DNA of 64,000 bases from Mobula hypostoma (taxonomy: Eukaryota): contig NC_086097.1 in the NCBI RefSeq assembly GCF_963921235.1, positions 173,974,001 to 174,038,000 on the forward strand, given 5' to 3'. The notes beneath the pieces were generated by a model, which worked only from the letters and a program-made list of their open reading frames with translations, made no database searches and had not been told where the DNA came from. Both the position numbers and the translations under genes were made by a program. Below, one piece after another: positions 503-54,376 of the stretch (positions within the stretch are counted from its first letter, which is position 1; each line of letters starts with the position of its first letter).

Positions 503-1627
503 GTAACACCCCTTTCATCCATTCCCCGGTTCCCGTTGAAGTCTTGTTTCTCTCTCCAAAGAGGCTGATTAACAGCAATTTCTAGTTTTATTTCAGCTTT
601 CCACCATCTATTGAATTTTGTTTTTGGGTGCTATGCAACTGGGTTTTTAACCACAGGAATGTCGCTCTCATGCATTCATTTGAAAGGGTAAAGGGATCTT
701 TTTCAAACACACAACTCAGTTTGAATTTTACATGCAATCTTTGCTGGTAAGAGTTGCTCGTTTTACAACCAAGAAACTGCAAGAGTTTAAAACAATGTCC
801 TCTTCGTCGCAAAGTTCAATCCTACAATTACGTTAATACTTTTTGTACAAGCTTACATTTTTAACATAGTTTGAAGAACTTTGAAATAAAAGTTGCATTT
901 CATTGCAAAGCTGAATACATGTGTATTGAACTGGGTTGATCAGACCCAAAAAAAAACAAATAATTTGAGTGTCCAGGAGATGTGGTAAGAAGTGTACACA
1001 ACAGAGTAACTTAAGCCTAATTATCATAAAATAGAAAACACAAATAATCCACATAAAATACTACGTAGTATTGTCACAAAGATTTCAGGGTTCTTGGTCG
1101 CTCCTCGATTGTCGCTTCTGTCAGGGGACTTGATTAGTGCTGTTGTTGGGGGAACTCCGAATTGTGACTCGTGAAATCACCGTGTCCGTCCTCGGCATCG
1201 ATCGCAATCTCTCGGTCTGGGTGAAGTCCCAAGAACTGAGCGAAAGGTGCCTCAATAAATAGGTGTTCAATACATAAGCATAGCGAGACAGAGACAGGTA
1301 AATTATTTCACCTTTTGTTCTCATGCCCCTAACTCAGCATGGTTTCTTTCATTCAAACAACTTGTGTTAGGCAGACATCCTGATGCCACTGTGCCAGGGA
1401 AGACTCCAGCTGCTATCAATAAACATTAGATATTAACAATCCTGCAGTGTTAATGCTTGTACAGACACAGTGACACCTTACATTTTGCGAGCTAACAAAG
1501 TGTCACTTGGAGCTCTTCAGATTTTCATCCAATATTTGACAAAATTTAATACATCAGAACAACTTGTATTAATGTTCAACAGTTTTATTTGAAAAGTTTA
1601 TGTGAGAAACTATGTAAAGTTTTAATA

Positions 1628-2110
1628 AGACCAGAAGATATAGGAGCAGAATTGGGCCATTTGGCCCATCCAGTATGCTCTACCATCCTATTGTGGTTGA
1701 TTTGTTATCCCTCCCAGCCCCATTTTCCTGCCTTCTCCCTGTAACCTTTGATGCCCTGATTAATCGAGAACCTATCAATCTCCACTTTAAATGTACTCAA
1801 TGACTTGGGCTGCAGAGCCATCTCTAGCAATGAATTCCACAGATTTGCCACCCTCTGGCTAATAAAATTTCTCCTCATCTTTGTTCTTAATGGATGTCTC
1901 TCTAGTCTAAGACTGTATCTTCTGGTCCTAGACTCGATCACAATAAGAATTGTCCTCTTGAGATCCACGCAATCTAGGTCTTTCAATATTCGATAGGTTT
2001 CAATGAGATTCCCCCTCATTCTTCTAAACTCCAGCAAGTACAGGCCCAGAGCCATCAAATGCTCCTCATACATTAACACTTTCATTCTCAGAATCATTCT
2101 TGTGGACCCT
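1628..2110 (-). mobile_element. CR1 LINE 3' fragment
   Basis: ORF 1705-2097 is the CR1 ORF2 C-terminus (YEEHLMALGLY..LEFRRMRGNLIETY..NLWNSL), followed by the CR1 3' UTR/tail. Confidence 0.9.
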
Positions 2111-2789
2111 CTCAGTGCACTTTATTGATGTGCAGTTGATGTTCTATGGCATCCACTGTTTTTATTAGTGAGAGATGAAATCATTGGAAGAAGCACAAAT
2201 GAGAAAGCCAACGAATAGAAGCAAACATCAGAATCAGTAGGCAAGGATCAAGGAAGATTCAATAAGTGTTTCAATAACAAGTATAGAGCTAGCAAATGTT
2301 CATCTTAATAAATTTAATTCCAAATGATATGAATAGTGGCATTAATCAATGAAGCTTCTTTCTGTTTGGTGAATTCTGCCTGTCTTCTGCTAGTGAATCA
2401 ATTCTCCAAGGTGGAAAGAGAAATAAGGACCTAGAAAGGGCATGGATTGCGAGCTTTCATAAAGAGTAGCTTGGCTACACCACTGGATGACCGTCAAAGG
2501 ATACAGGTACCAGACTGGACCCATGGCAGTAGTGAGATAACCAACAGAAGAAAATAAGATGTCCTTGACCAGTCTAGCTTTTATAAATGTGTGATAATAT
2601 TGGTATGAAAGACCACTGCACAGACTTTATGCAGGCTAAGTGCTGTCTTCACACTGAGCACACCCCTTTTTTGTTTGCTAAAGCTGATTGATTCATAACA
2701 AATCCAGCACCTCAAAATTAAGCATGTGTCATAAAATTGTATTCCACAACAGTCTTTAACCTCATTGCTTGACATTCCTTGCTACAGGC

Positions 2790-4392
2790 TGCTGGAAGTA
2801 TTTCAGTTTTCAACTTTTGGAAATCTATATAATGAGATAGCTTGGGGATAGAATCCAAGTCTAAACACTAAATTCCATTTACATTACATATACAACTTAT
2901 ACATATACGCTGAAGTTAGTGTTATATAATACTTCAAAAATAATTTTGTGCATGAAACAATACATTGAACCATCAGAAAGGTAAGCTGTCACTACCTCAG
3001 CCACTCATGTTGACAGTCAGCGGCTATTTGGCATCGCCTTCATACCCAACTTTTAATTTATGTGCGACCGGTAAGCAGTCTTTCTCTTATACTTGATCAT
3101 CGTACATATGTACTTAACAGCAAAAATTATTAAATATAACAAAAATCTAATGTGTGCGGGGTAACAAAAGCAATATTGGGAGAATACCTGAATAGGTTGT
3201 TAAGCAACAACAAGCAACAGTAGGGTTTCAGTCTTCACCTATGATGTTGTGTCTTGATTAAAAGTTATAGTACATTGTGTTTGTATTTTACTTTTTTTAG
3301 GTTTTATATAGGTGTAAAATCAAAAGATTGATCTTAAATACAACGAAAACTGAGAAAAGGCAACATTTTATTTTTAGTGCAAGAACACACTCAAATATGG
3401 GATTTTAGTGGAGATGAAATTCAGATTTCACACTGTATTGTAATTACAGAAATAGCTAATGTTTTTCACTCACAAAATAAGTTAAATGCAGCACCAAACA
3501 CTGCACCTACAGCAGGTCTGAGAAACTTGAGGGAGAGGGTACATCATTGTGAGGAGGAACAGAAGAAGCAGTTGAGGGACCTGGAAGCTGATGCCCTTGG
3601 GATGAGGAGGCACTGTGCTATATGACTTTTTAAAATATTTCTTCCAGTGTCGTCTGCCTCATTGACAAAGATTTTTGTCATAACCATCTTCCTTTGATTT
3701 TATAAACTGACATGATTTCTTGTTCTATTTGAATGCATGCTGCCTTTCAATAAGTCCATCATGTTTTCACCATTTTGTCTGTGGGCACCTTTTCTACTGT
3801 GTTAACAATATGATCTTCACTGTTTATGATCAGATGCTAATCACTGCAAATCTTTAAAAATTTATTGCGGTGCAGTATTTTTCTATTTTTCATTAACCAG
3901 CTTAGAACTTTTCACAGTTTGTCCTTCAGTTCCTTCACATCATATATACTGGTCATTCCAACACGATACTACTCTGCCAGATGCTTCACACTTACACCAC
4001 TGTCAAGTTTTTCCAATAATTTGTCTTTCTGTGTTATAGCTAAACATAAGTACTTCCTGTTTTTACCCATAAAGGTAACTGCAAGCCTTCTTACATTTTC
4101 AACAATATCTTCACTGCACAGAGCAGAGTTTAAGACACATGGTGATCACTGTGAGTAATGCACGAAGGTCTAGCTATGATGACTGCTGAAAACAAACTGG
4201 CGCCAACTGGGCCCCACTCAGGGTGTGTGAGGTCACTCTCAGAATTGTCTGTGGTGTGCAGAGACCTGCACATTGCCTGGAAACCTTCCCAGCACCTTGT
4301 GGAATTTTGAATTTGTGACATCATGTCAGCGCTCAAAAAATTTCATATCTTGGAGGGTTTTGGATATTGGATTTTCGGGTAAGGGGTCTCAA
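2790..4392 (-). mobile_element. Degenerate Tigger/pogo-like (Tigger4/MER46-like) DNA transposon
   Basis: Terminal region (catgtcagcgctcaaaaaatttc...ggattttcgggtaagggg) resembles Tigger4/MER46 ends; minus strand ~4070-3900 translates to a decayed CENP-B/psq-type HTH (RKYLCLAITQKDKLLEKLDSGVSVKHL). Left boundary approximate. Confidence 0.65.
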
Positions 4393-17714: not shown

Positions 17715-20015
17715 GTAAGTAGGTACAGAGGGGATGTCAGGGGTAAGTTTTTTTAACGCAGAGTGTGGTGAGTGCATGCAATGGGCTTCCGCAACAATGG
17801 TGGAGGTGGATACAATAGGGTCTATTAAGAGGCTCCTAGATAGGTACATGGAGCTTAGGAAAATAGAGAGCTATGGGTAACCCTCGGTAATTTCTAAAGT
17901 AAGCATTGTGGACCGAAGGGCCTGTATTGTGCTGTAGGTTTTGTATGTTTCTATGCCATAAGAAGGGAAAAGATTAAATATGAAGGCAAACTAACCAATA
18001 ATATGAAGCAGATACTAAAAGTTCTTTCAGTTATATAAAGAGTAAAAGGGAGGTGAGAATTAACATTGGACCACTGGAGGTAGTGATGCTGGTGAGGTAG
18101 TAATAGGGGACAAAGAAATGGTGGATGAACTTAATGAGTACTTTGCATCAGTCCTCACTAGCAGTGTGCCAATGAGTGTCAGGGAGCAGGAGTGAGCGCC
18201 ATTTCTTACAATGGAAAAAGTGTTAGGCAAACTGAAAGATCTTAAGGTGGATAAGCCAATTGATGGACTACATCCCAGAGTTCTGAAAGAGGATGTTGAA
18301 GAGATAGCAGATGAATTAGTCATGATCTTTAAAGAATCACTTGATTCTGGCGTGGTCCCAGAGGACTGGAAGATTGCAGTTGTCACTCCACTCTTTAAGA
18401 ATGGAGGAAGGCAAAAGAAAGGAAATTATAGGCCAGTTAGCCGAACCTAAGTGGTTGGGAAATTTAAACGTAAACAACAGGAATTCTGCAGATGCTGGAA
18501 ATTCAAGCAACATACATCAAAGTTGCTGGTGAACGCTTTTAAAAAGGAAAAGCAGAAGACCAGAGCGGGGTGTCCATGAATTTTAAAAAGGAAAAGCAGA
18601 AGACCAGTTTTAAAAAGGAAAACGCCTGCTGCGTTCACCAGCAACTTTGATGTATGTTGGTTGGGAAATTGTTGGACTCCATTATTAAGTTTAAGGTTTC
18701 AGGGTACTTGGAGACTCATGATAAAATAAGTCAAAGTCAGCATGGTTTCTGTGAAGGGAAATCTTGCTTGACAAATCTGTTAGAGTTCTTCAAGGAAGTA
18801 ACAAGCAGGGTGGACAAAAGAGAGGCAGTGGATGTCATCTTGAATTTTCAGAAGGCATTTGATAAGGTACCAGACGTGAGGCTGCATAACAAGGTAAAAT
18901 CCCATGGCATTACAGAAAAGATTGGCATGGATAGAGGTATAGCTGACAGTCAGAAGGCAGCGAGTGGGAATAAAGGGGGCCCTTTCTGGTTGACTGCCAG
19001 TGACTAGTGGTGTTCCTCAGGGGTCAGTATTAGGAGCACTACTTTTCACATTGTTTTGTCAGTGATTTAGATAATGTAATTGATGGCTATGTGGCAAAGT
19101 TTGCAGATGATACAAAGATAGATGGAGGGGTAAAGCAATGCAATTGCGGAGGATTTAGACAAATTGGAAGAATGGGCAAAAAATTGGCAGATGGAATGCA
19201 GTGCTGGGAAATGTATGATGATGCATTTTGGTAAAAGGAACAAATGTGCAGACTATTATCTAAATGGAGAGAAAATTCAAACATCATAGGCACAAAGGGA
19301 CTTCAGATTCGTCGTACAAGACTCCCAGAAGGTTAATTTACAAGTTGAGTTTGTGGTTAAAAAAAAAGGCAAATGCACTGTTGACATTCATTTCAAGGGG
19401 AACAGATTATAAAAACAAGGGGATAATGCTGAGGCTTTATGAGACGCTTGTCAGATCGCATTTGGAGTATTGTCAACAGTTTTGGGCCCCATATCTCAGA
19501 AAGGATGTGTTGTCATTAGAGAGAGTCCAGAGGAGTTTCACGAGGATTATTCTGGGCATGAAGGGGTTAACATATGAAGAGCACTTGGCAGCTTTGGGCC
19601 TGTACTCACTGGAATTTAGAACAATGTAGGGGAATCTCATCGAAGCCTACCAAATGTTGAAAGGACTAGATAGGTGGATATGGAAAGGATGTTTTCTATG
19701 GTGGGGTGTCCAGAACTAGAGGACATAGCCTTAAAACTCAGGGTGAGCCTTTAGAACGGACATAAGGAAGCATTTTTTAGCCAGTGAGTAGTGAATCTGT
19801 GTAATGCTCTGCCACAGGCAGCTGTGGAGGCTAAGAGCATGGGTATATTTAAAGCGAAAATTGATAGTTTCCTGATTGGTCAGGGCATCAAAGGTTATGA
19901 TGAGAAGGCAGGTGTATGGGGTTGAAAGGGAGCCTGGATCAACCATGATAAAATAGTGGAGCAGACTTAATGGGCTGAATGGCCTAATTCTGCTCCTATG
20001 TCCTATGGTTTTATG
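17715..20015 (+). mobile_element. CR1 LINE fragments (short 3' end ~17715-17955; longer decayed ORF2 plus 3' end ~17957-20015)
   Basis: DGLHPRVLKE..VPEDWKIAVVTPLFK..GNYRPVS; SQHGFCEGKSCLTNLLEFF..FQKAFDKVP; FADD region ~19100; RLYETLVRSHLEYCQQFW; tail ctatgtcctatggttttatg. Confidence 0.9.
18465..18657. mobile_element. Penelope pseudo-LTR-derived fold-back insertion
   Basis: 13-bp TSD TGGTTGGGAAATT (18452-18464 / 18658-18670); perfect 28-bp inverted repeat 18509-18536 / 18631-18658 made of Penelope terminal sequence (same as ~30870-30900). Confidence 0.8.
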
Positions 20016-20904
20016 CCCATTGATAAATGGATCAAAATTGCATGGGTACAGATTCACATAGCAGGAGACCAACGCTTTCTAATATTATCTAATTCTGAAC
20101 AAGAAAACTTTGTTAAGTAAGAGAAGTGGTTTATGCTTTATTCATTTGCAATAAAATTGCTACCATGCATTTGCAAGTTTTGAACTAAATTACTGTTCAT
20201 TTCTGGTGAATATGGCTTTGTGCCACTCTAAGCCTTAGAAAATCAGAAATATATGGTTATACTGGACATAGAGAATCATTTCTTTGCTAGGATGGCAGAA
20301 TTCATATAAGTGCTTTGGCATTGCATAACCTTAAAAGGTGGAGTGACATACAGATTTAATTCATCTCAACTTGTAAAGGATTGGTGCAACAGTAGCCTAG
20401 TTTCAGTTAACTGCAACTGCTTGCAGCAATTATATAAATGCTAAAACGTGCCAGATTAACAGTGTAACAGAAAAATCTGAATCTGGAGTGCAGCTGAACC
20501 TCTTGGCATTCAAGTCGTTCTTTCAGCAATTGAATGGAACTTATAATCAGAGCACAGTAAAAGTATTGTTGAATCAGATGTTGGCTCCTCAGATGCATCT
20601 CATGATTACTCAAACCCATTCTGTATATGAAAGTCATAGTTGATTGCTTCAGTGAAGGAATTTGCTTGATTTCTTCAAGCAAACACATGTATGATTTCAC
20701 TTATCATTCTCCTCATGCTGTATAATAAAATATTTTAATGTTTTGATCAGAGTAGTTTTAACTTGATACAGCTGTTTTTCTTCATACTGCAAAGTTAATC
20801 ATGAACCACCAGAAAGAATGGGTTGTCTTTGGATCAAGGCCAGTTAGGATGTCAAGAAAAATATTTTTTTCAAGAGGGTCAAGCATAAGAAACAACTGTC
20901 GTGT

Positions 20905-23466
20905 ACATACATCTACTGATAATTCTGGACACATCTTCAGTGATGTTCCTGGAATCATCGGGTGTTTCGGGTCTTTCAGCATCATACACTCTCCTCCAGG
21001 TGACCCAGCCGGGGCTGATCAGACCCCAGCTTGTGTCCAGATGGCTAGCTACTTATGACTCCATGGCTCCCCTCTTTTGAGCCACAGCCATCTTGAGGCC
21101 CTCTCTGCCGCATCGGTGGTACTGCGGATGGCTCTCCTCTTCCTCTCTCCCTCGATGCCCAAATTGCTGAAGGCTCTGGCTAAAGAATGGGCTGCAAATC
21201 CCCTACATTCAACCTCCACTGGGAGATACCTCGCTCTCCATCCAGCCTGCTGACAGTTGCTGACCAGTCCTGCATACTTGGAGAGCTTCCTTTCAAAGGC
21301 CTCTTCCAAGCGATCTTCCCATGGGACTGTCAGCTCCAGTAGCACCACTTGCTTAGTAGACTCAGACACAAGGACAATGTCTGGTCGCAGGGTGGTTGCT
21401 GCGATATGGTTGGGGAACTTCAGCTGCCGTTTGAGGTCCACCAAGAGCTGCCAGTCCCTTGCAGAGGTTAGAATGCCTGCAGATGTTCCTTTGGCAGGTA
21501 TTGGCTGCTTCCCAGCTCTGACAAAGGCAATGGCTTGCTTGGAGGGTGGGGACCGCCAGGTCTTCAGGACCTGATCATGCCTCCATCGGTACCGTCCCTC
21601 ACCAAGTGTCCTTGTACAGCCGCTGAGGATGTGCTCCAGGGTTCCTTGCTTGGAGCACAGTGGGCACACGGGTGACTGTGCTTTGCCCCATGTGTGCAGG
21701 TTTGATGGGCTTGGAAGCACATCGTACACTGCCTGGATGAGAAATTGGATGCGGTGTGGTTCAGCTTTCCAAAGCTCAGCCCAGGTCCCTTTCCTCTCAA
21801 CCGCATTCTCCCACCTTGTTCAAGCTCCCTGTTGCTTCATTCCCACCGCCTTGCAGGTTCTCGTCTCCTCCACTATTGCTCTCACCTCCTCCTGAACAAG
21901 GCAAAGCCTTTCCTTCCCTCTTATGGTGTCCATTTGGGGAGTTGGAAAGGGTCCTAGCCCAGCTCGGCCTCGTAAGACCACTCCCACCAGCCTCCTGTGA
22001 CGCAGCCTTGCCTCTGCTTCCTGAACAGCTTCCTCTGCTCTCCACTTCCTGCCAGTCCTGACTTGGATCCCTGCTCTAGCCACCTTCGGATCACTTGAGT
22101 CCCAAAACTGTACCACTTCTCTGGCTCTTGTTACCTTGAACTCTTCCTCCAAGGATTTGAAGGGCAGTTGCAGTTTGTTGTGGTGTCCATAGAGTGCGAT
22201 GCTGCTCAGGCTCTTTGGCAGCCCCAGCCATCTCCTGAGGTGGTTGCTAACCCTCCTCTCTAAGGTTTCAACTGTCAAGATCGGTAACTGCATAAACGAG
22301 GAGGGGCCACAGGAAGCTGGGAAGAATGCCATGCTGATACACCCAGGCTTTGAACTTCCCAGGTAGGCCAGACTTGTCCACAGATTTCAGCCAGCCATCC
22401 AACTCAGTGCAGGTCACCTGAATGGATGTCGTGTCCCTTAAAGAGCTGTCAAAAGCTTTGCCTAAGCTCTTGACTGGCTTTTCTGTGATGGTTGGGATGG
22501 CTGTGCCTGCGATGCTGAACCGGAACTTGTTCTCCACCTTCCCTTTCCTCAGCACCATAGATCTTGATTTGGCTGGTTTGAAACGCATCCGAGCCCACTC
22601 CACCTGCTTTTCAAGCCCCTGCAGAATCCACCAGCAGCCTGGGACAGATTCTGTAGTGACTGTGAGGTCATCCATGAATGCCCTGATAGGTGGTTGCCAT
22701 TGAGCGGAATTCATTCTGGGCCCTCTGCACTCTGGTTCAGCAGACTTAGCGAGCATGTTCTGAGAAAAGTGTCACTGAGATCGTGCACCCTGTGATGATG
22801 CTGATCTCCAACTAGCGCCAGGTTGATGTAATTGCTCCTGAAGAGACCCTCATCCTGAAGTTGCTGAAAAATCAGTGATAAGGTCTCTGATTCTGCTGGG
22901 GACGTGATATTTGGTCAGTGTGAACTGCACCAGCTTGTGCGGAATGGAGCCATTTGCATTTGCCAGGTTGAGCCACAACACTGACAAGTTGCCCTTGTTC
23001 TCTCTGGCCTCCCTGATGAGCTGTGTCACCACACCGGTATGCCCCAGACAGCCTGGCATCCCTGAAATGCCACCCTTCTGGACTGATGTATCAATATAGG
23101 TGTTCTTTGCTAAGTAAGTGCACAGCCAATTGGAAACGGCACTGAAGAAGATCTTCGCTTGACACACAGCAGGAAGAAGATGCAGAACTGGTCTGTCTGG
23201 GTGGCGTTTTCCTCCTTTGGGATCCACACCCCTTCAGCCTCTCTCCACTGTTCTGGGATCTTCCCCATTCTCCAGAAGATTCTCAGGATCTTCCACAGAT
23301 GCAGCAGGAGTTTTGGGCAGTTCTTGTACCCTTAGTACAAGGTGCTGCTTGGTCCTGGAGCCGAGCTTGCCTTTGCTTTGTGGACGATCTCTCTGACTTC
23401 CTTTAGCTGCAGCTCCGACATGTCAAACTGCACATCCAGTTCAGGGGGGTCTATCAAGATGTTGCA
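20905..23466 (-). mobile_element. 5'-truncated, frameshifted RLE-type non-LTR retrotransposon (R2 superfamily, Hero-like)
   Basis: RT motifs SVQKGGISGMPGC, LNLANANGSIPH, PPIRAFMDDLTV; CCHC knuckle CPLCSKQGTLEHILSGC; RHD motif RYRWRHDQVL; restriction-like endonuclease LRPDIVLV..LLELTVPWE..RKLSKY; stop near 21050 followed by a structured 3' UTR. Confidence 0.9.
20925..21040 (-). ncRNA. Putative non-circularly permuted (pseudoknotted) hammerhead ribozyme in the Hero 3' UTR
   Basis: Minus strand: GUA (20987-20985) then UGAUG (stem I); GACCC-GAAA-CAC (20973-20962); CAUCA-CUGAAGA (20945-20934); GGGUC (21006-21002) pairs with GACCC; CUGGACACA (21040-21032) pairs with UGUGUCCAG (20933-20925). Confidence 0.65.
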
Positions 23467-24504
23467 CATTTTCAAAACAAAAATGGTTATGGTGGCCTGA
23501 GAAAGAAAATGTTGTGCTTGGATGTCTACAAATGGTGGCGAGGGAGCATCTGGTCAATCTTGGTGTATCGAAAATATATCCCGTGATACCTTTCATGAAA
23601 TTGTTTTTCATTTACTCCAACTCCATAACTTTTCTCCCCGTTTGTGAAGTTTATCCCCCATCTTGTGTTAGACTGGTTAATTCTGAATGATTTTTCCATA
23701 ATATGTTCATTGAGGCTAGTAATTGCAATTGCTTGCAGCAACTATGGAAACACTGCAGCAGAATTTGTAGAATTTGTAAATTAGTTTTCAGTCTGACTGT
23801 TGTATATACTTTGTAACTTGAATTTTGACAGCATCACCTGAGCCCCTTCAGTTCCACCATTGTTTCAGCAGTTTTCCCTCCGTAGCTTGCGTAGCCGATG
23901 CCAGCTGTAAATTTCATTGCCATTTACTGTGTTCTCCAGAGTGTATAGTTATCTGATTCATATGTTCACTGAAATTATGTATAGTATGCCTGACTGAACT
24001 GGATCCATGATTTGTATAAGCTGAGAGTCACTTCCTAACATTTCTGTTCTATGCCTTTGGCAATACAAGTCGACACTATTTGCTGCCTTTATTTGTTGGA
24101 TAATACTAATCCCCAAAATACTTTGTCAAATGTAATAATATCATTTAGGGGATTATAAAGAGGTGCAGAGCAAAATGTGCCCAGAGTATAACTTACAAGA
24201 TTTTCCATGGAATCTGCAATTGTTTTGTGGGGCATATTTATCCAATTTCCTTTTGAAGGCTTCAATTGTATTTCTCCCTTGAGTCCAGAAGGAGACATTC
24301 ACCCTAGACATTTTCTTATTTTTAGGCAATCCTCTTTCATTTTATTCCATGGCCTTCAATTTTGCTAATGACCTGATATGGGGTAATTTATCAAATGCGT
24401 TTTGAAGGTCAATGTAAACTGTACTATCTTTATTCACACTGTTTACTTCATAATATAAATAAGCAGGTTAGTCAAACACCACTTGCCCTTAACACATCCT
24501 GCAA

Positions 24505-24985
24505 GAATGTAAGAAGCTGCAGGGAGTAATGTGCTCAGCCCAATACATCATGGACATATCCTTCCCCACCATTAGTAGTATCTACTTGAGGCACTGCCTC
24601 AAGAATGCAACATCCATTATCAATGATCCCAACTGTCCAGGCCATGCATCTTCTTGCAGCTACCAACAGGCAGGAGATACGGAAACCTGAAGTCCCACAC
24701 CATCAGATTCAAGAACAGCTACTTCTCTTCAGTTATTTGGATCTTGAACTAACTTGCACAATCATAATCACTACCTCAGTATAGCAACACTATGACCACT
24801 TCAAACACTTCGCACCACAAATCGATCTTGGTTTTGTTTTTTGTTCTAATTGTGTTATTTTTGTAAAAATTGTGTGTAATTTATGTTTTCTTGTGAATAT
24901 TGAGTATCAGATGCAATGCAAGTAAATCTTCATTTTACCTTTGCATACATGTACTTATGCATATGACAATAACTTTGATTTTGAC
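24505..24985 (+). mobile_element. Rex-Babar LINE 3' fragment
   Basis: Similar to 13500-13725 and 7700-8150 (cagcccaatacatcatgg..ctaccaacaggcaggagatac..); tail gacaataactttgattttga. Confidence 0.7.
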
Positions 24986-26459
24986 ACCTATGCTTGCTCT
25001 CATTTATTGGAACAAGCTTGTTCAAGTGACTGATAATATTTTACAAATGTTGTTTTGAAAATCTTTGCATCACTAATCTTAAATTGACTCACTAGTAACA
25101 GCTAAGCTTACCCTTTGTTTTTTGAAAATTCAAAATGTACGTTGTAAACACAAAGTCCCGAAGCCTTCCTTTTTGATCCATTCTCCTTTGCTTCCTCCTG
25201 CTCAGCTTATTTTAAATAAATTGCAAAAGCATTTCACCTGTATCAAAATTACAGATTTGGAAACTTTCCTGCTGTGTTGCATTGTGTCAAATTTCCTTGG
25301 GAAAATCCAAATGATATTTTTTCCCTTTCATCTGGCTATCTCCTGAAAGCTTCATATGGCATTTATGTGCCTGGGAAGGTTTGTATTCAGCTGCCCCCAA
25401 GGCACTTGGGCCACAAGTTTCAGCAGAGAAAAAATCCTCTTTAAACTCATACTGCTCCTCTATTGCTCATACGCTTTGGATGTTCTCAAATTAAGGACAA
25501 TTATAAACATTGAATTGCGTTCATTCAAAACTAGTGAATATTTGCTCTTTGTCTTTTCAATTGTTTCTCTTCATTGTAATGAACAAAATTGTATTCATTG
25601 GGGCAGAGAATTGCACACAGCACATATGTTTATGAGGAATCCAACATTGGAGCACATATAGTGAAACCCAGCACAGAGCTAGTTCTACCCCATTAGGCCA
25701 GGGTACAGGTAAATGCAATCGGTAGCCAATACAATAATGCAAAGCATGCAACCAGCTACTGTATAAGTCAGGAAAGGTCAAAATAATCACTGATTGTTTT
25801 AGTCCAGTAATATGCTTGAATCAGCCAATTTGATAAGACTCCATTGAAGAATGGTGTGTTAAAAATAAGTTATGAGCTGTTGTTCAAGCTAAGCAATACC
25901 AAATAGGAGACTTTATAATTGAGCTGACCTCAAGACAAGGCTGCAAGTCACAGCAAGAAAAATAATTCATAATTCTGTTCATAAGGATCTGAAAATAGAT
26001 TAGCTTTTTCAATGCTTTATTTAACTGGAAGCCAGGATAACATGACAAGCACAGAGATAGTAGGTTCTTTCATTGACACAGACAACCAGAGCATAGAGGT
26101 AAGGGTTTGGATGATAATTTCAAAAGTGAATAAGTTCAATATTAGAAGAGTTGAAATAGGTAGACTTAATATAGGCACAGGAATGAACTCTCAAATTCAA
26201 CTTGAGGTCAAAATGTCATCAAGTTTGCTTCCATTCTATCAGAAAGTAACTGCTGGAATCATTACATAGATGAAGATCTTGCATATTTTTATTTCCAACA
26301 GGTTTTGTGTTCATCAATTCTCAAGTTTGAGAGAATAAGAATTAACATTACAGTCAAATTATCTTTGTGTAACTAAAGTAGTCAACATTCTCAACAGCAG
26401 ATCATCACAGACATAAAACAGTGTAAGAGAAAACACATTAAATCAGAATGTAGTTATTA

Positions 26460-27545
26460 AGAGCACAAGAGATTCTGCAGTGCTGGAAATCCAAAGCAAC
26501 ACATACAAAATGCTGGAGGAACTTAACAGATCAGGCAGCACCTATAGAAATGAGTAAACAGTCTCTTCACCAAGACCCTTCATCAGGACTAGAAAGAAGG
26601 GGGATAGAAACCAGAAAAAGAAGGGGAGGGGAGGGGAAGGAATACAAGCTAAGGATAATAGCTGAAGTTTGCCCACCTGGCTTCCCCTATTACCTTTTAG
26701 GTTATGCTTCTTACCCTCCTCTTATTCTAGCTTCTTCCCCCATCCTTTTAAGTCCTGAAGAAGGGGCTCAGCCAGAAACATTGACTTTATTTATTTCCGT
26801 AGATACTGCCTAACATCTACAGGAAGGGGAGAGAAGATGGCGGCGCAACGACAGTGCGCGCGGCCACTTCGGTGATGAATATCTGTTATTTGTCAAGTAG
26901 GGGACCGTGCACAATCCTCATTAAATGGAGACAGACGTGAGAGCACAGCAGAACATCTGGAAAACTTCTGAAATGCCTGCTTTGCTACTGTGTGGTAACC
27001 GGAATCTCCGGAGCTGAAGGCCCCGAAATCCTCGGCTTTGCGTGTTTCAGCGGCCGGGAAGAGGTCGAAGGCGTTCGGCAGAGGATAGCGCTTGGGAGGC
27101 TGTATCGGAGAGGCTGCTGGGAAGCTCGGATTTTTCAGACGGATGGAGTCAGGGTCGGTTGTGGTCAGCTTCTTCCAAGGTATCGGCAAGTTGACGGTGC
27201 CTGGAGGTTTATGGCAGGGAGTTTCTCCCTTGTGCCGCCTGCTATCGGGGACTCGGGAATCGATCGACTCGGGACTTTGAGAATTTTTTTACTGTGCCTA
27301 TGGTCTGTTCTTTATCAAATTATGGTATTGCTTTGCACTGCTGTAACTATATGTTATAATTATGTGGTTCTGTCAGTGTTAGTCTTTGGTCTGTCTTGTT
27401 TTCTGTGATATCACTCCGGAGAAACATTGTATCATTTCTCAACGCATGTATGTATTTCTAAATGACAATAAAAGAGGACTGAGTGTTCTCATAATCTAAT
27501 CTAACCTGCTGGCATCCTCCAATATTTTGTATGTGTTACTCTGTG
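26460..27545. mobile_element. Inverted pair of Penelope pseudo-LTR remnants, with a ~690-bp element inserted at 26814-27504
   Basis: cacaagagattctgcag..gctggaaatccaaagcaacac (minus-oriented end) and agtcctgaagaagggg..gaaacattgact..gatactgcctaa|cctgctgg (plus-oriented end). Confidence 0.75.
26814..27504 (+). mobile_element. Short non-coding non-autonomous retroelement (YY1-motif 5' end, LINE-like 3' end with (ATCTA)n tail)
   Basis: Cleanly splits the Penelope sequence gatactgcctaa|cctgctgg; AAGATGGCGGC at 26834-26844; CpG-rich body; gacaataaaa signal and ataatctaatctaa tail. Confidence 0.65.
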
Positions 27546-54198: not shown

Positions 54199-54376
54199 CT
54201 TCCCTTCCCACTTTCAAATCTCTATACTAGCTCTTCTTTGAGTTAGTCCTGACGAAGGGTCTGGGCCCGAAACGTCGACTGTACCTCTTCCTAGAGATGC
54301 TGCCTGGCCTACTGCGTTCACCAGCAACTTTTATGTGTGTTGCTTGAAATTCCAGCATCTGCAGATTTCCTCGTGA
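54199..54376 (+). mobile_element. Penelope pseudo-LTR fragment carrying an intact minimal hammerhead
   Basis: Near-identical (reverse complement) to 30868-31015; hammerhead at 54245-54280. Confidence 0.9.
54245..54280 (+). ncRNA. Minimal type I hammerhead ribozyme (Penelope-type, palindromic stem III)
   Basis: AGUC-CUGACGA-A-GGGU(CUGG)GCCC-GAAA-CG-UC-GACU: stem I AGUC/GACU, intact core, stem III replaced by the palindrome ACGU. Confidence 0.8.

Follow-up and report, generated by a model that had tools for sequence, protein, structure and literature searches.

A clade-wide candidate hammerhead ribozyme, its core split by a four-way junction, at the ends of Hero retrotransposons

What is the RNA structure that follows the last open reading frame (ORF) of a Hero-clade retrotransposon, and what does it do for the element? 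The copy that raises the question lies on the minus strand of a 64,000-nucleotide (nt) stretch of the Mobula hypostoma genome (NC_086097.1, positions 173,974,001 to 174,038,000; hereafter the window, whose numbering we use), and its element is a retrotransposon that lacks long terminal repeats (non-LTR) and has a restriction-like endonuclease (RLE). A first-pass annotation of the window had read a pseudoknotted, non-circularly permuted hammerhead ribozyme here, and all of the strands that it named are found, from 21040 to 20925, beginning 9 nt past the ORF stop (21051-21049). Read 5′ to 3′ on the minus strand, the 5′ strand of helix A (21032..21040, pairing with 20933-20925) is followed by hairpin B (21007..21031), identified by folding and by cross-family junction analysis as the fourth arm of a junction. 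Next come the 5′ strand of stem II (21002..21006, with G10.1 at 21006), which is supplied from upstream and not from behind CUGANGA, and the 5′ strand of helix I′ (20995..21000), which pairs with 20953-20948 and joins the far ends of stems I and II. Block S (20978..20991) holds the stem III 5′ strand, the NUH triplet GUA (H17 is 20985), and the stem I 5′ strand, and the predicted cut falls directly after GUA, between 20985 and 20984. A 4-nt linker and block G (20960..20977) contribute the stem II 3′ strand, G12 A13 A14 (20968-20966, part of the GAAA at 20968-20965), and the stem III 3′ strand; the helix I′ 3′ strand and block C (20934..20953) contribute the stem I 3′ strand and CUGAAGA (20940-20934). 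The helix A 3′ strand (20925..20933), whose first base directly follows A9, leads into a short tail (20900..20924) with neither poly(A) nor repeats; its far end is the fixed insertion end, which lies some 85 nt 3′ of the predicted cut. The stem lengths first given hold for the window copy, which has two changes (20990 and 20979) relative to most of 30 aligned genome copies; in most of those, stem III has 6 bp and stem I has 7 bp.

Taken alone, the window copy is not above chance: a 12-letter pattern finds 1 match against 1.85 expected, and single-sequence folding, a method blind to pseudoknots, gives a nonsignificant z of −1.39 for a fold that does contain helices A, B, and II. A scan of positions 18000-27000 against Rfam (E≤10) returned 13 weak matches, with no hammerhead or other ribozyme among them. 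The case for the motif therefore rests on relatives. These were fetched by protein only, to avoid circularity, and the best 80 of 420 confirmed stretches gave 79 metagenome loci at 38-89% identity; 11 of the 79 were dropped from the strict-parser and geometry-only tests, and 16 from a search of the 1 kb behind the ORF, where an ORF end or enough downstream DNA was lacking. The strict parser found a hammerhead in the order NUH, GAAA, CUGANGA (S>G>C), the non-circular order first read in the window, in 44 of 68 scorable metagenome loci as well as in the window, compared with 76 of 4500 shuffles that preserved the positions of the core letters and 0 of 68 stretches of coding DNA. When the search was widened to 1 kb, the motif appeared in 54 of 63 scorable loci, with all 12 core positions in 46; the nine misses are two strict-parser positives, two variants recognized by eye, one decayed copy, two loci that end before the distance seen in a sister locus, and two loci that lack the motif. 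A first look through the genome (3.48 Gb) yielded 1704 candidates for the 3′ end; 40 of these were scored and 30 retrieved, and the strict pattern, meaning an intact core, is present in 44 of 74 scorable copies. Viral contigs gave 37 pattern matches and 0 relatives. Long 3′ untranslated regions (UTRs), with the motif 430-730 nt past the ORF end, were seen in L107, L123, L096, and L084, and the clade of L107, L122, L128, and L123 has repeated GGATTA words in its 3′ UTR.

Do the core letters obey the rules of a hammerhead? That core is C3 U4 G5 A6 N7 G8 A9, G12 A13 A14, A15.1-U16.1, and H17, as set out in PMC3088659. A search with helix geometry and no core letters, run on 69 sequences and 137 controls, placed 52 of the 69 above the best control; five of the 52 (L073, L103, L113, L107, and L122) are off-register or false by eye and are kept in the counts, and 4 strict-parser positives fell below the threshold. 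Among the 52, the expected letter is present at C3 in 45, U4 in 48, G5 in 49, A6 in 48, G8 in 48, A9 in 47, G12 in 45, A13 in 49, A14 in 51, A15.1 in 49, and U16.1 in 48, while all four bases occur at N7 and position 17 is occupied by C in 20, U in 20, A in 12, and G in none. Three loci depart from the core by a G12 to A change in a CpG context, which is what dead copies would be expected to show. By these counts, the core letters follow the hammerhead rules.

The helices were assessed in a structure-blind alignment (A2) of 27 non-redundant sequences, with L103 and L137 of the 29 families left out for a misplaced 10.1. Over 18 pairs, 94.3% of positions are paired (29-45% in slid controls), and there are 129 two-sided changes against 35.5 in shuffled alignments, a number that 0 of 500 shuffles reach; the sequences are parser-chosen and related, so the figure leans upward. 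Pairing reaches 99% in stem I, 97% in stem II, and 93.9% in stem III, with two-sided changes in 11 of 13 pairs (4 of 5 for stem II with its upstream strand), and helix I′ is 87.8% paired, with two-sided changes in 4 of 5. The 10.1-11.1 pair is GC in 23 sequences and GU in 4. Helix A varies from 5 to 16 bp and has five first-pair types across families. Judged from this alignment, stems I, II, and III exist and covary, as does the helix that joins I to II. Covariation and junction counts bear out all six of the proposed helices across the clade, and the comparison of family copies, in which the motif is kept and covaries strongly, confirms that it is a real, clade-wide feature and not a chance arrangement of letters. 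In L105 and L132, where NUH is AUA, the 10.1-11.1 pair and helix A seem to be offset by at least one base, so that these variants provide a natural probe of the strictness of the junction.

How is the split core held together? The A9-G10.1 step had been described as bridged by a helix in place of backbone; it is indeed bridged, but by two helices, A and B, not one. From A9 the chain enters helix A, then hairpin B, and from there G10.1; all three links are free of unpaired bases in 24 of 29 families, as against 27 of 870 in a shuffle control, and no base is unpaired after A9 in 25 of 29. The core and helices A, B, and II therefore make up a perfect four-way junction. A G stands at base 10.1 in 27 of 27 sequences, whereas the base following A9 is free, which points to the core stacking on stem II. 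Could stem II instead be contiguous, as in an ordinary type-SGC ribozyme, with helices A and B an alternative, inactive fold? Type-SGC ribozymes are known and active, and 4 of 29 families could form at least 4 contiguous pairs when 0-2 inserted bases are allowed. However, the strand after CUGANGA and the strand before GAAA are 49.6% paired, no better than their own slid controls (38-55%; 27 sequences), and C11.1 is unpaired in 24 of 27. We rejected the contiguous stem, and the ordinary type-SGC explanation, largely refuted with it, is very improbable.

The motif has the hammerhead core letters, covarying stems I, II, and III next to the core, and helix I′. It belongs to none of types I, II, and III, since its order is S, G, C instead of S, C, G, and it has no Rfam match. 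The S>G>C order is already published as type-SGC (Eckert 2023, PMC10085705). What appears to be new, from the alignments, is that stem II is made with an upstream strand and that A9 and G10.1 are parted by a perfect four-way junction. Eckert 2023 states that CUGANGA and its stems are separated by at most 1-2 bases in all known alignments, and the search patterns of that study assumed that the A9-G10.1 step cannot be interrupted (PMC10085705), which would explain why its RefSeq searches missed the Hero motif. In Penelope hammerheads one extra base between 9 and 10.1 is described as conserved, and slow cleavage is reported even where helix II is short or absent; the literature consulted offered no direct precedent for a junction at this step. 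The hammerhead variants of Weinberg 2015 and Forgia 2023 reportedly include one in which stem II forms at a distance, a possible precedent for a break near A9-G10.1; they are said not to have the S>G>C order and not to lie in RLE retrotransposons. Variants “containing additional helices” are attributed to these two reports in PMC13725137. The literature that we searched, with subscription journals and Repbase Reports outside its coverage, holds no report of a hammerhead in Hero elements.

Does the fold cut? We consider it highly likely that it self-cleaves in some role. The linker and helix I′ match those of type-SGC ribozymes, which cleave, and we count this resemblance in favor of catalysis. 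It would be surprising, by contrast, if the motif were not a ribozyme and served as a folded 3′ docking structure for the reverse transcriptase (RT), with hammerhead-like letters and perhaps as a relic. Docking would suit a fold that stands just before the priming end in an RNA whose 3′ piece is always kept, and it would suit a strand after CUGANGA that is held in helix A and cannot form stem II, as its pairing and the unpaired C11.1 indicate. Yet the missing strand is supplied from upstream, with 97% pairing and an invariant G10.1. A dock would give no reason for a free N7, for a ban on G17 where A, C, and U all occur, for an invariant U16.1-A15.1, or for a G10.1-Y11.1 pair, and these letter rules hold in elements down to 38% protein identity. 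Nor would all 12 of 12 core positions survive in a relic at 46 of 54 loci. The two roles, docking and catalysis, do not exclude each other.

Where would a ribozyme act? Its placement in the 3′ UTR by the first-pass annotation is right in that the motif lies behind the ORF stop, but is misleading in that near-full-length copies open with part of their own 3′ end repeated, which places the motif in front of the 5′ UTR as well, at a distance of about 85 nt. Among loci picked by their 5′ UTR (336 candidates, 40 scored, 30 used), 27 of 30 copies have at least 22 nt of their own 3′ end in front of them, joined at an exact junction and reaching lengths above 1500 nt; in two long-ORF copies this upstream stretch measures about 215 and 600 nt, and 9 of 44 metagenome loci continue into a next unit. 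Complete elements thus follow, without a seam, on a copy of their own 3′ end that varies in length. This head-to-tail layout of Hero is probably already known, judging by the title of Bouneau 2003, which reports a tandem structure for a pufferfish element. In the 30 copies retrieved by their 3′ end the element ends about 85 nt past the predicted cut, and target duplications, judged by eye at the few loci with both ends, are 0-4 nt. Internally deleted units of about 1 kb occur at L022, L035, L040, L054, L057, L053, and other loci, several of them sharing a breakpoint (window 21224) and some standing in tandem (L054, L034); they are likely a non-autonomous subfamily that keeps both ends and the ribozyme.

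The 5′ ends of the 30 copies picked by their 5′ UTR bear on the role of the cut. Measured from the junction, 17 copies end at or below 83 nt, 0 at 84-142, and 13 at or beyond 143, with the cut at 85; one short value is an alignment artefact that remains in the same class. The rate at which 5′ ends stop is 3.2-fold higher before the cut (p 0.004, n = 30, post hoc), and all 13 long copies keep the whole ribozyme upstream. This pattern suits a pool of RNA that begins at the predicted cut. We propose that the ribozyme acts from the terminal repeat in linear 5′-end processing of the element RNA, and put the probability of this at roughly 0.48. Stem II would stack on the G12-A9 end of the core and helices A and B on each other, so that the active site could assemble although A9 and G10.1 are not linked by backbone. 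The upstream copy would then cut the element RNA from a longer transcript and make its 5′ end, which is the job of the hepatitis delta virus (HDV)-like ribozyme in R2, and the cut would leave an 85-nt terminal repeat. Reverse transcription would start at the fixed 3′ end and either stop in the 85-nt repeat or, through strand transfer or where the RNA is uncut, enter a second 3′ end and so regenerate the tandem. The downstream copy would have to be kept uncut or be re-ligated, perhaps through protein binding or the other stacking form of the junction.

Several observations weigh against 5′-end processing. Every copy retains the 85 nt that follow the cut; the downstream ribozyme therefore cannot both cut and release them, and an extra control step is needed. 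Moreover, 2 of the 17 short 5′ ends lie within 3 nt of the cut (a post hoc test, n = 30), and 13 of 30 copies run seamlessly through it, which is impossible for a cut linear RNA without transfer. RT stalling on structure could give the same pattern of 5′ ends. What covariation demonstrates is a fold, not catalytic activity, and shuffle tests are inflated when sequences are related; catalysis across a four-way junction would also go against the statement of Eckert 2023 on CUGANGA and its stems.

Could the element instead be copied from circular RNA? Here the same ribozyme would cut at both copies, the ends would be re-joined, and more than one round would be copied from a fixed start, an explanation that we hold to be possible and tentative. 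The four helices A, II, III, and I′ hold the cut ends together and would favor self-ligation. The exact junctions of 27 of 30 copies with their own 3′ end, the 9 of 44 metagenome loci that run on into a next unit, and the absence of poly(A) all fit a circle, as do the first bases past the 3′ end, which match the next unit (G in 45 of 50, C in 31 of 50), but the match ends after 2 bases (T in 12 of 50). With a circle there would also be no need to explain why the downstream copy stays uncut, and for Penelope elements, too, this model has been put forward. A longer match was considered as a sign of a circle and rejected, with no excess beyond 2 bases at 50 ends, and the hypervariable position −5, considered as a ligation scar, was rejected as lying 5 nt from the cut. 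A single circle read twice should give identical copies, yet in 5 of 12 loci the upstream and downstream copies differ at lineage marker +69, which is linked to other markers (p about 0.001-0.002), and divergence within a locus (97/2017) is close to that between loci (1261/21661). The discordance fits two template copies; it is not decisive, as 11 of the 12 loci are internally deleted units, possibly products of template switching, and the full-length loci collected numbered only 2. Finally, the drop in 5′ ends at the cut is not predicted by a circle itself. All 24 RNA runs found consist of contigs, which cannot show RNA ends; the 4 that were compared with the element had neither joints nor pile-ups of ends. 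In a circle, the four-way junction may act as an on/off switch, and an ORF often without an upstream AUG would be translated cap-independently. The full scenario, in which Hero, an autonomous and protein-coding clade, replicates through a self-cut, self-ligated circle formed by an undescribed hammerhead topology, with target-primed reverse transcription inside the circle and cap-independent translation, strikes us as unlikely.

What kind of element carries the motif? The copy at 20901..23467 (minus strand) comprises RT, CCHC, RLE, and the 3′ tail; it is 5′-truncated, frameshifted, and dead, and it is 91.4% identical to positions 1027-3635 of the full-length copy L160. Its last ORF piece (21049..21819, minus strand) encodes the CCHC motif and the restriction-like endonuclease (RPD...ELTVPWE). 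Pfam RVT_1 and zf-RVT fall below the cut-off in the window ORF pieces, and RVT_1 is above it in L160, whose 1166-codon open frame contains the RT, CCHC, and RLE motifs and whose best relatives of solved structure are R2 proteins (E 6e-24). The Hero-type assignment made at first holds: L160 shares 63% identity with AAN12398, a protein that clusters with BAC82599 (Tetraodon), and 61% with BAC82598 (Takifugu), and L160 and the two pufferfish proteins form one clade (SH-aLRT 100) in a quick tree of 82 rows whose scope does not extend to R4, NeSL, and CRE outgroups. We take BAC82598 and BAC82599 to be the proteins encoded by AB097130 and AB097131 (HEROFr and HEROTn), on the strength of species and consecutive accessions, and AAN12398, by its species, to be Zebulon. 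HEROFr and HEROTn are listed as AB097130 and AB097131 in PMC2790886. The Hero clade is described as having a single ORF in the order RT, CCHC, PD-(D/E)XK-like endonuclease, a layout that L160 and the window pieces share, and as mostly lacking target-site specificity; in agreement, the 3′ flanks differ among the 30 aligned copies, and 50 ends have no base preference beyond +2 or +3. Hero is also said to have no Cys-His motif upstream of RT (PMC2790886), whereas a CxC-x2-C...H motif is present there in both L160 and the Tetraodon protein; the statement may reflect truncated ORFs, because the deposited HERO ORFs start at a later Met.

Relatives of the element are present in teleosts, amphioxus, and molluscs. 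Teleost proteins (P0121-P0134, L061) are 82-89% identical to it over the RT region, and the best C-terminal match is from a ray; so high an identity over such a distance hints at horizontal transfer. In L160 and L161, the 1166-codon frame starts at an ATG that lies 14 nt before the insertion end; as a conserved start this ATG was rejected, the frame not being open from there in 9 other families examined. Downstream of the ribozyme in L066, L072, L085, and L103, the main frame opens with a conserved YPQ...RG...E stretch, and no Met precedes its N-terminal zinc-finger motif. This hints at non-AUG or cap-independent initiation, which would fit an RNA without a cap. The 5′ UTR behind the ribozyme has three or four repeats of a TGAC word, each followed by a short purine-loop hairpin, shared by distant families (L070:2301-2410, L071:2820-2930, L072:3195-3305, L079:2504-2615, L103:1808-1918, L126:1403-1512, and L022:822-1010); these repeats may serve to bind protein, as an internal promoter, or in translation. 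Elsewhere in the window, broken RT frames at 18196-19629 (plus strand) belong to another long interspersed nuclear element, presumably CR1-like, and two minimal type-I hammerhead motifs of the Penelope kind lie at 54249 (plus) and 30966 (minus).

If the motif cleaves, animal genomes hold a family of non-circularly permuted ribozymes, which Eckert 2023, by its own account, did not find in RefSeq. A hammerhead core could then assemble with A9 and G10.1 on different strands, against the rule built into search patterns, and more hidden hammerheads would be implied. The Hero clade would gain an RNA-processing mechanism that would explain the excision of its RNA and its head-to-tail insertion, with a tandem layout tied to that of Penelope elements by convergence. 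The origin of partial-tandem retrotransposons, by circle or by strand transfer, becomes testable with a 120-nt RNA and dozens of natural variants. Furthermore, RLE elements are under development for gene insertion, and their RNA ends are hence of practical weight.

How does the motif compare with known systems? Type-SGC ribozymes (HRIMA-1 and variants), described from metatranscriptomes only, cleave at 0.007-0.13 per minute (PMC10085705). Like them, the Hero motif has the order S, G, C, a short linker between stems I and II, a helix joining the far sides of these stems, and the core letters. In theirs, however, the stem II strand directly follows CUGANGA in an uninterrupted block C, whereas in Hero this strand and half of the I-II helix lie upstream of block S and are joined through helices A and B; the motif thus appears to work like a type-SGC ribozyme while falling outside that type as defined. 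The hammerheads of Penelope-like elements and non-LTR retrozymes likewise lie near the 3′ end, are carried into a partial upstream copy (pseudo-LTR), and occur in head-to-tail insertions for which a circle has been proposed (PMC4209133, PMC8557442, bioRxiv 10.64898/2026.07.22.740005). Those are described as type-I, often minimal and dimeric, and housed in GIY-YIG elements, in contrast to the full stems, non-circular order, and RLE non-LTR host of the Hero motif. HEROFr, HEROTn, and Zebulon belong to the same clade as the present element (63% and 61% identity), and no ribozyme is reported for them in the literature searched. Finally, R2, from a sister RLE clade, has an HDV-like ribozyme that frees the element RNA and sets its 5′ end (PMC13708176, PMC13580325), the role that we propose for Hero; as described there, R2 uses another ribozyme class in a single 5′ copy, targets a specific site in ribosomal DNA, and has no terminal repeat.

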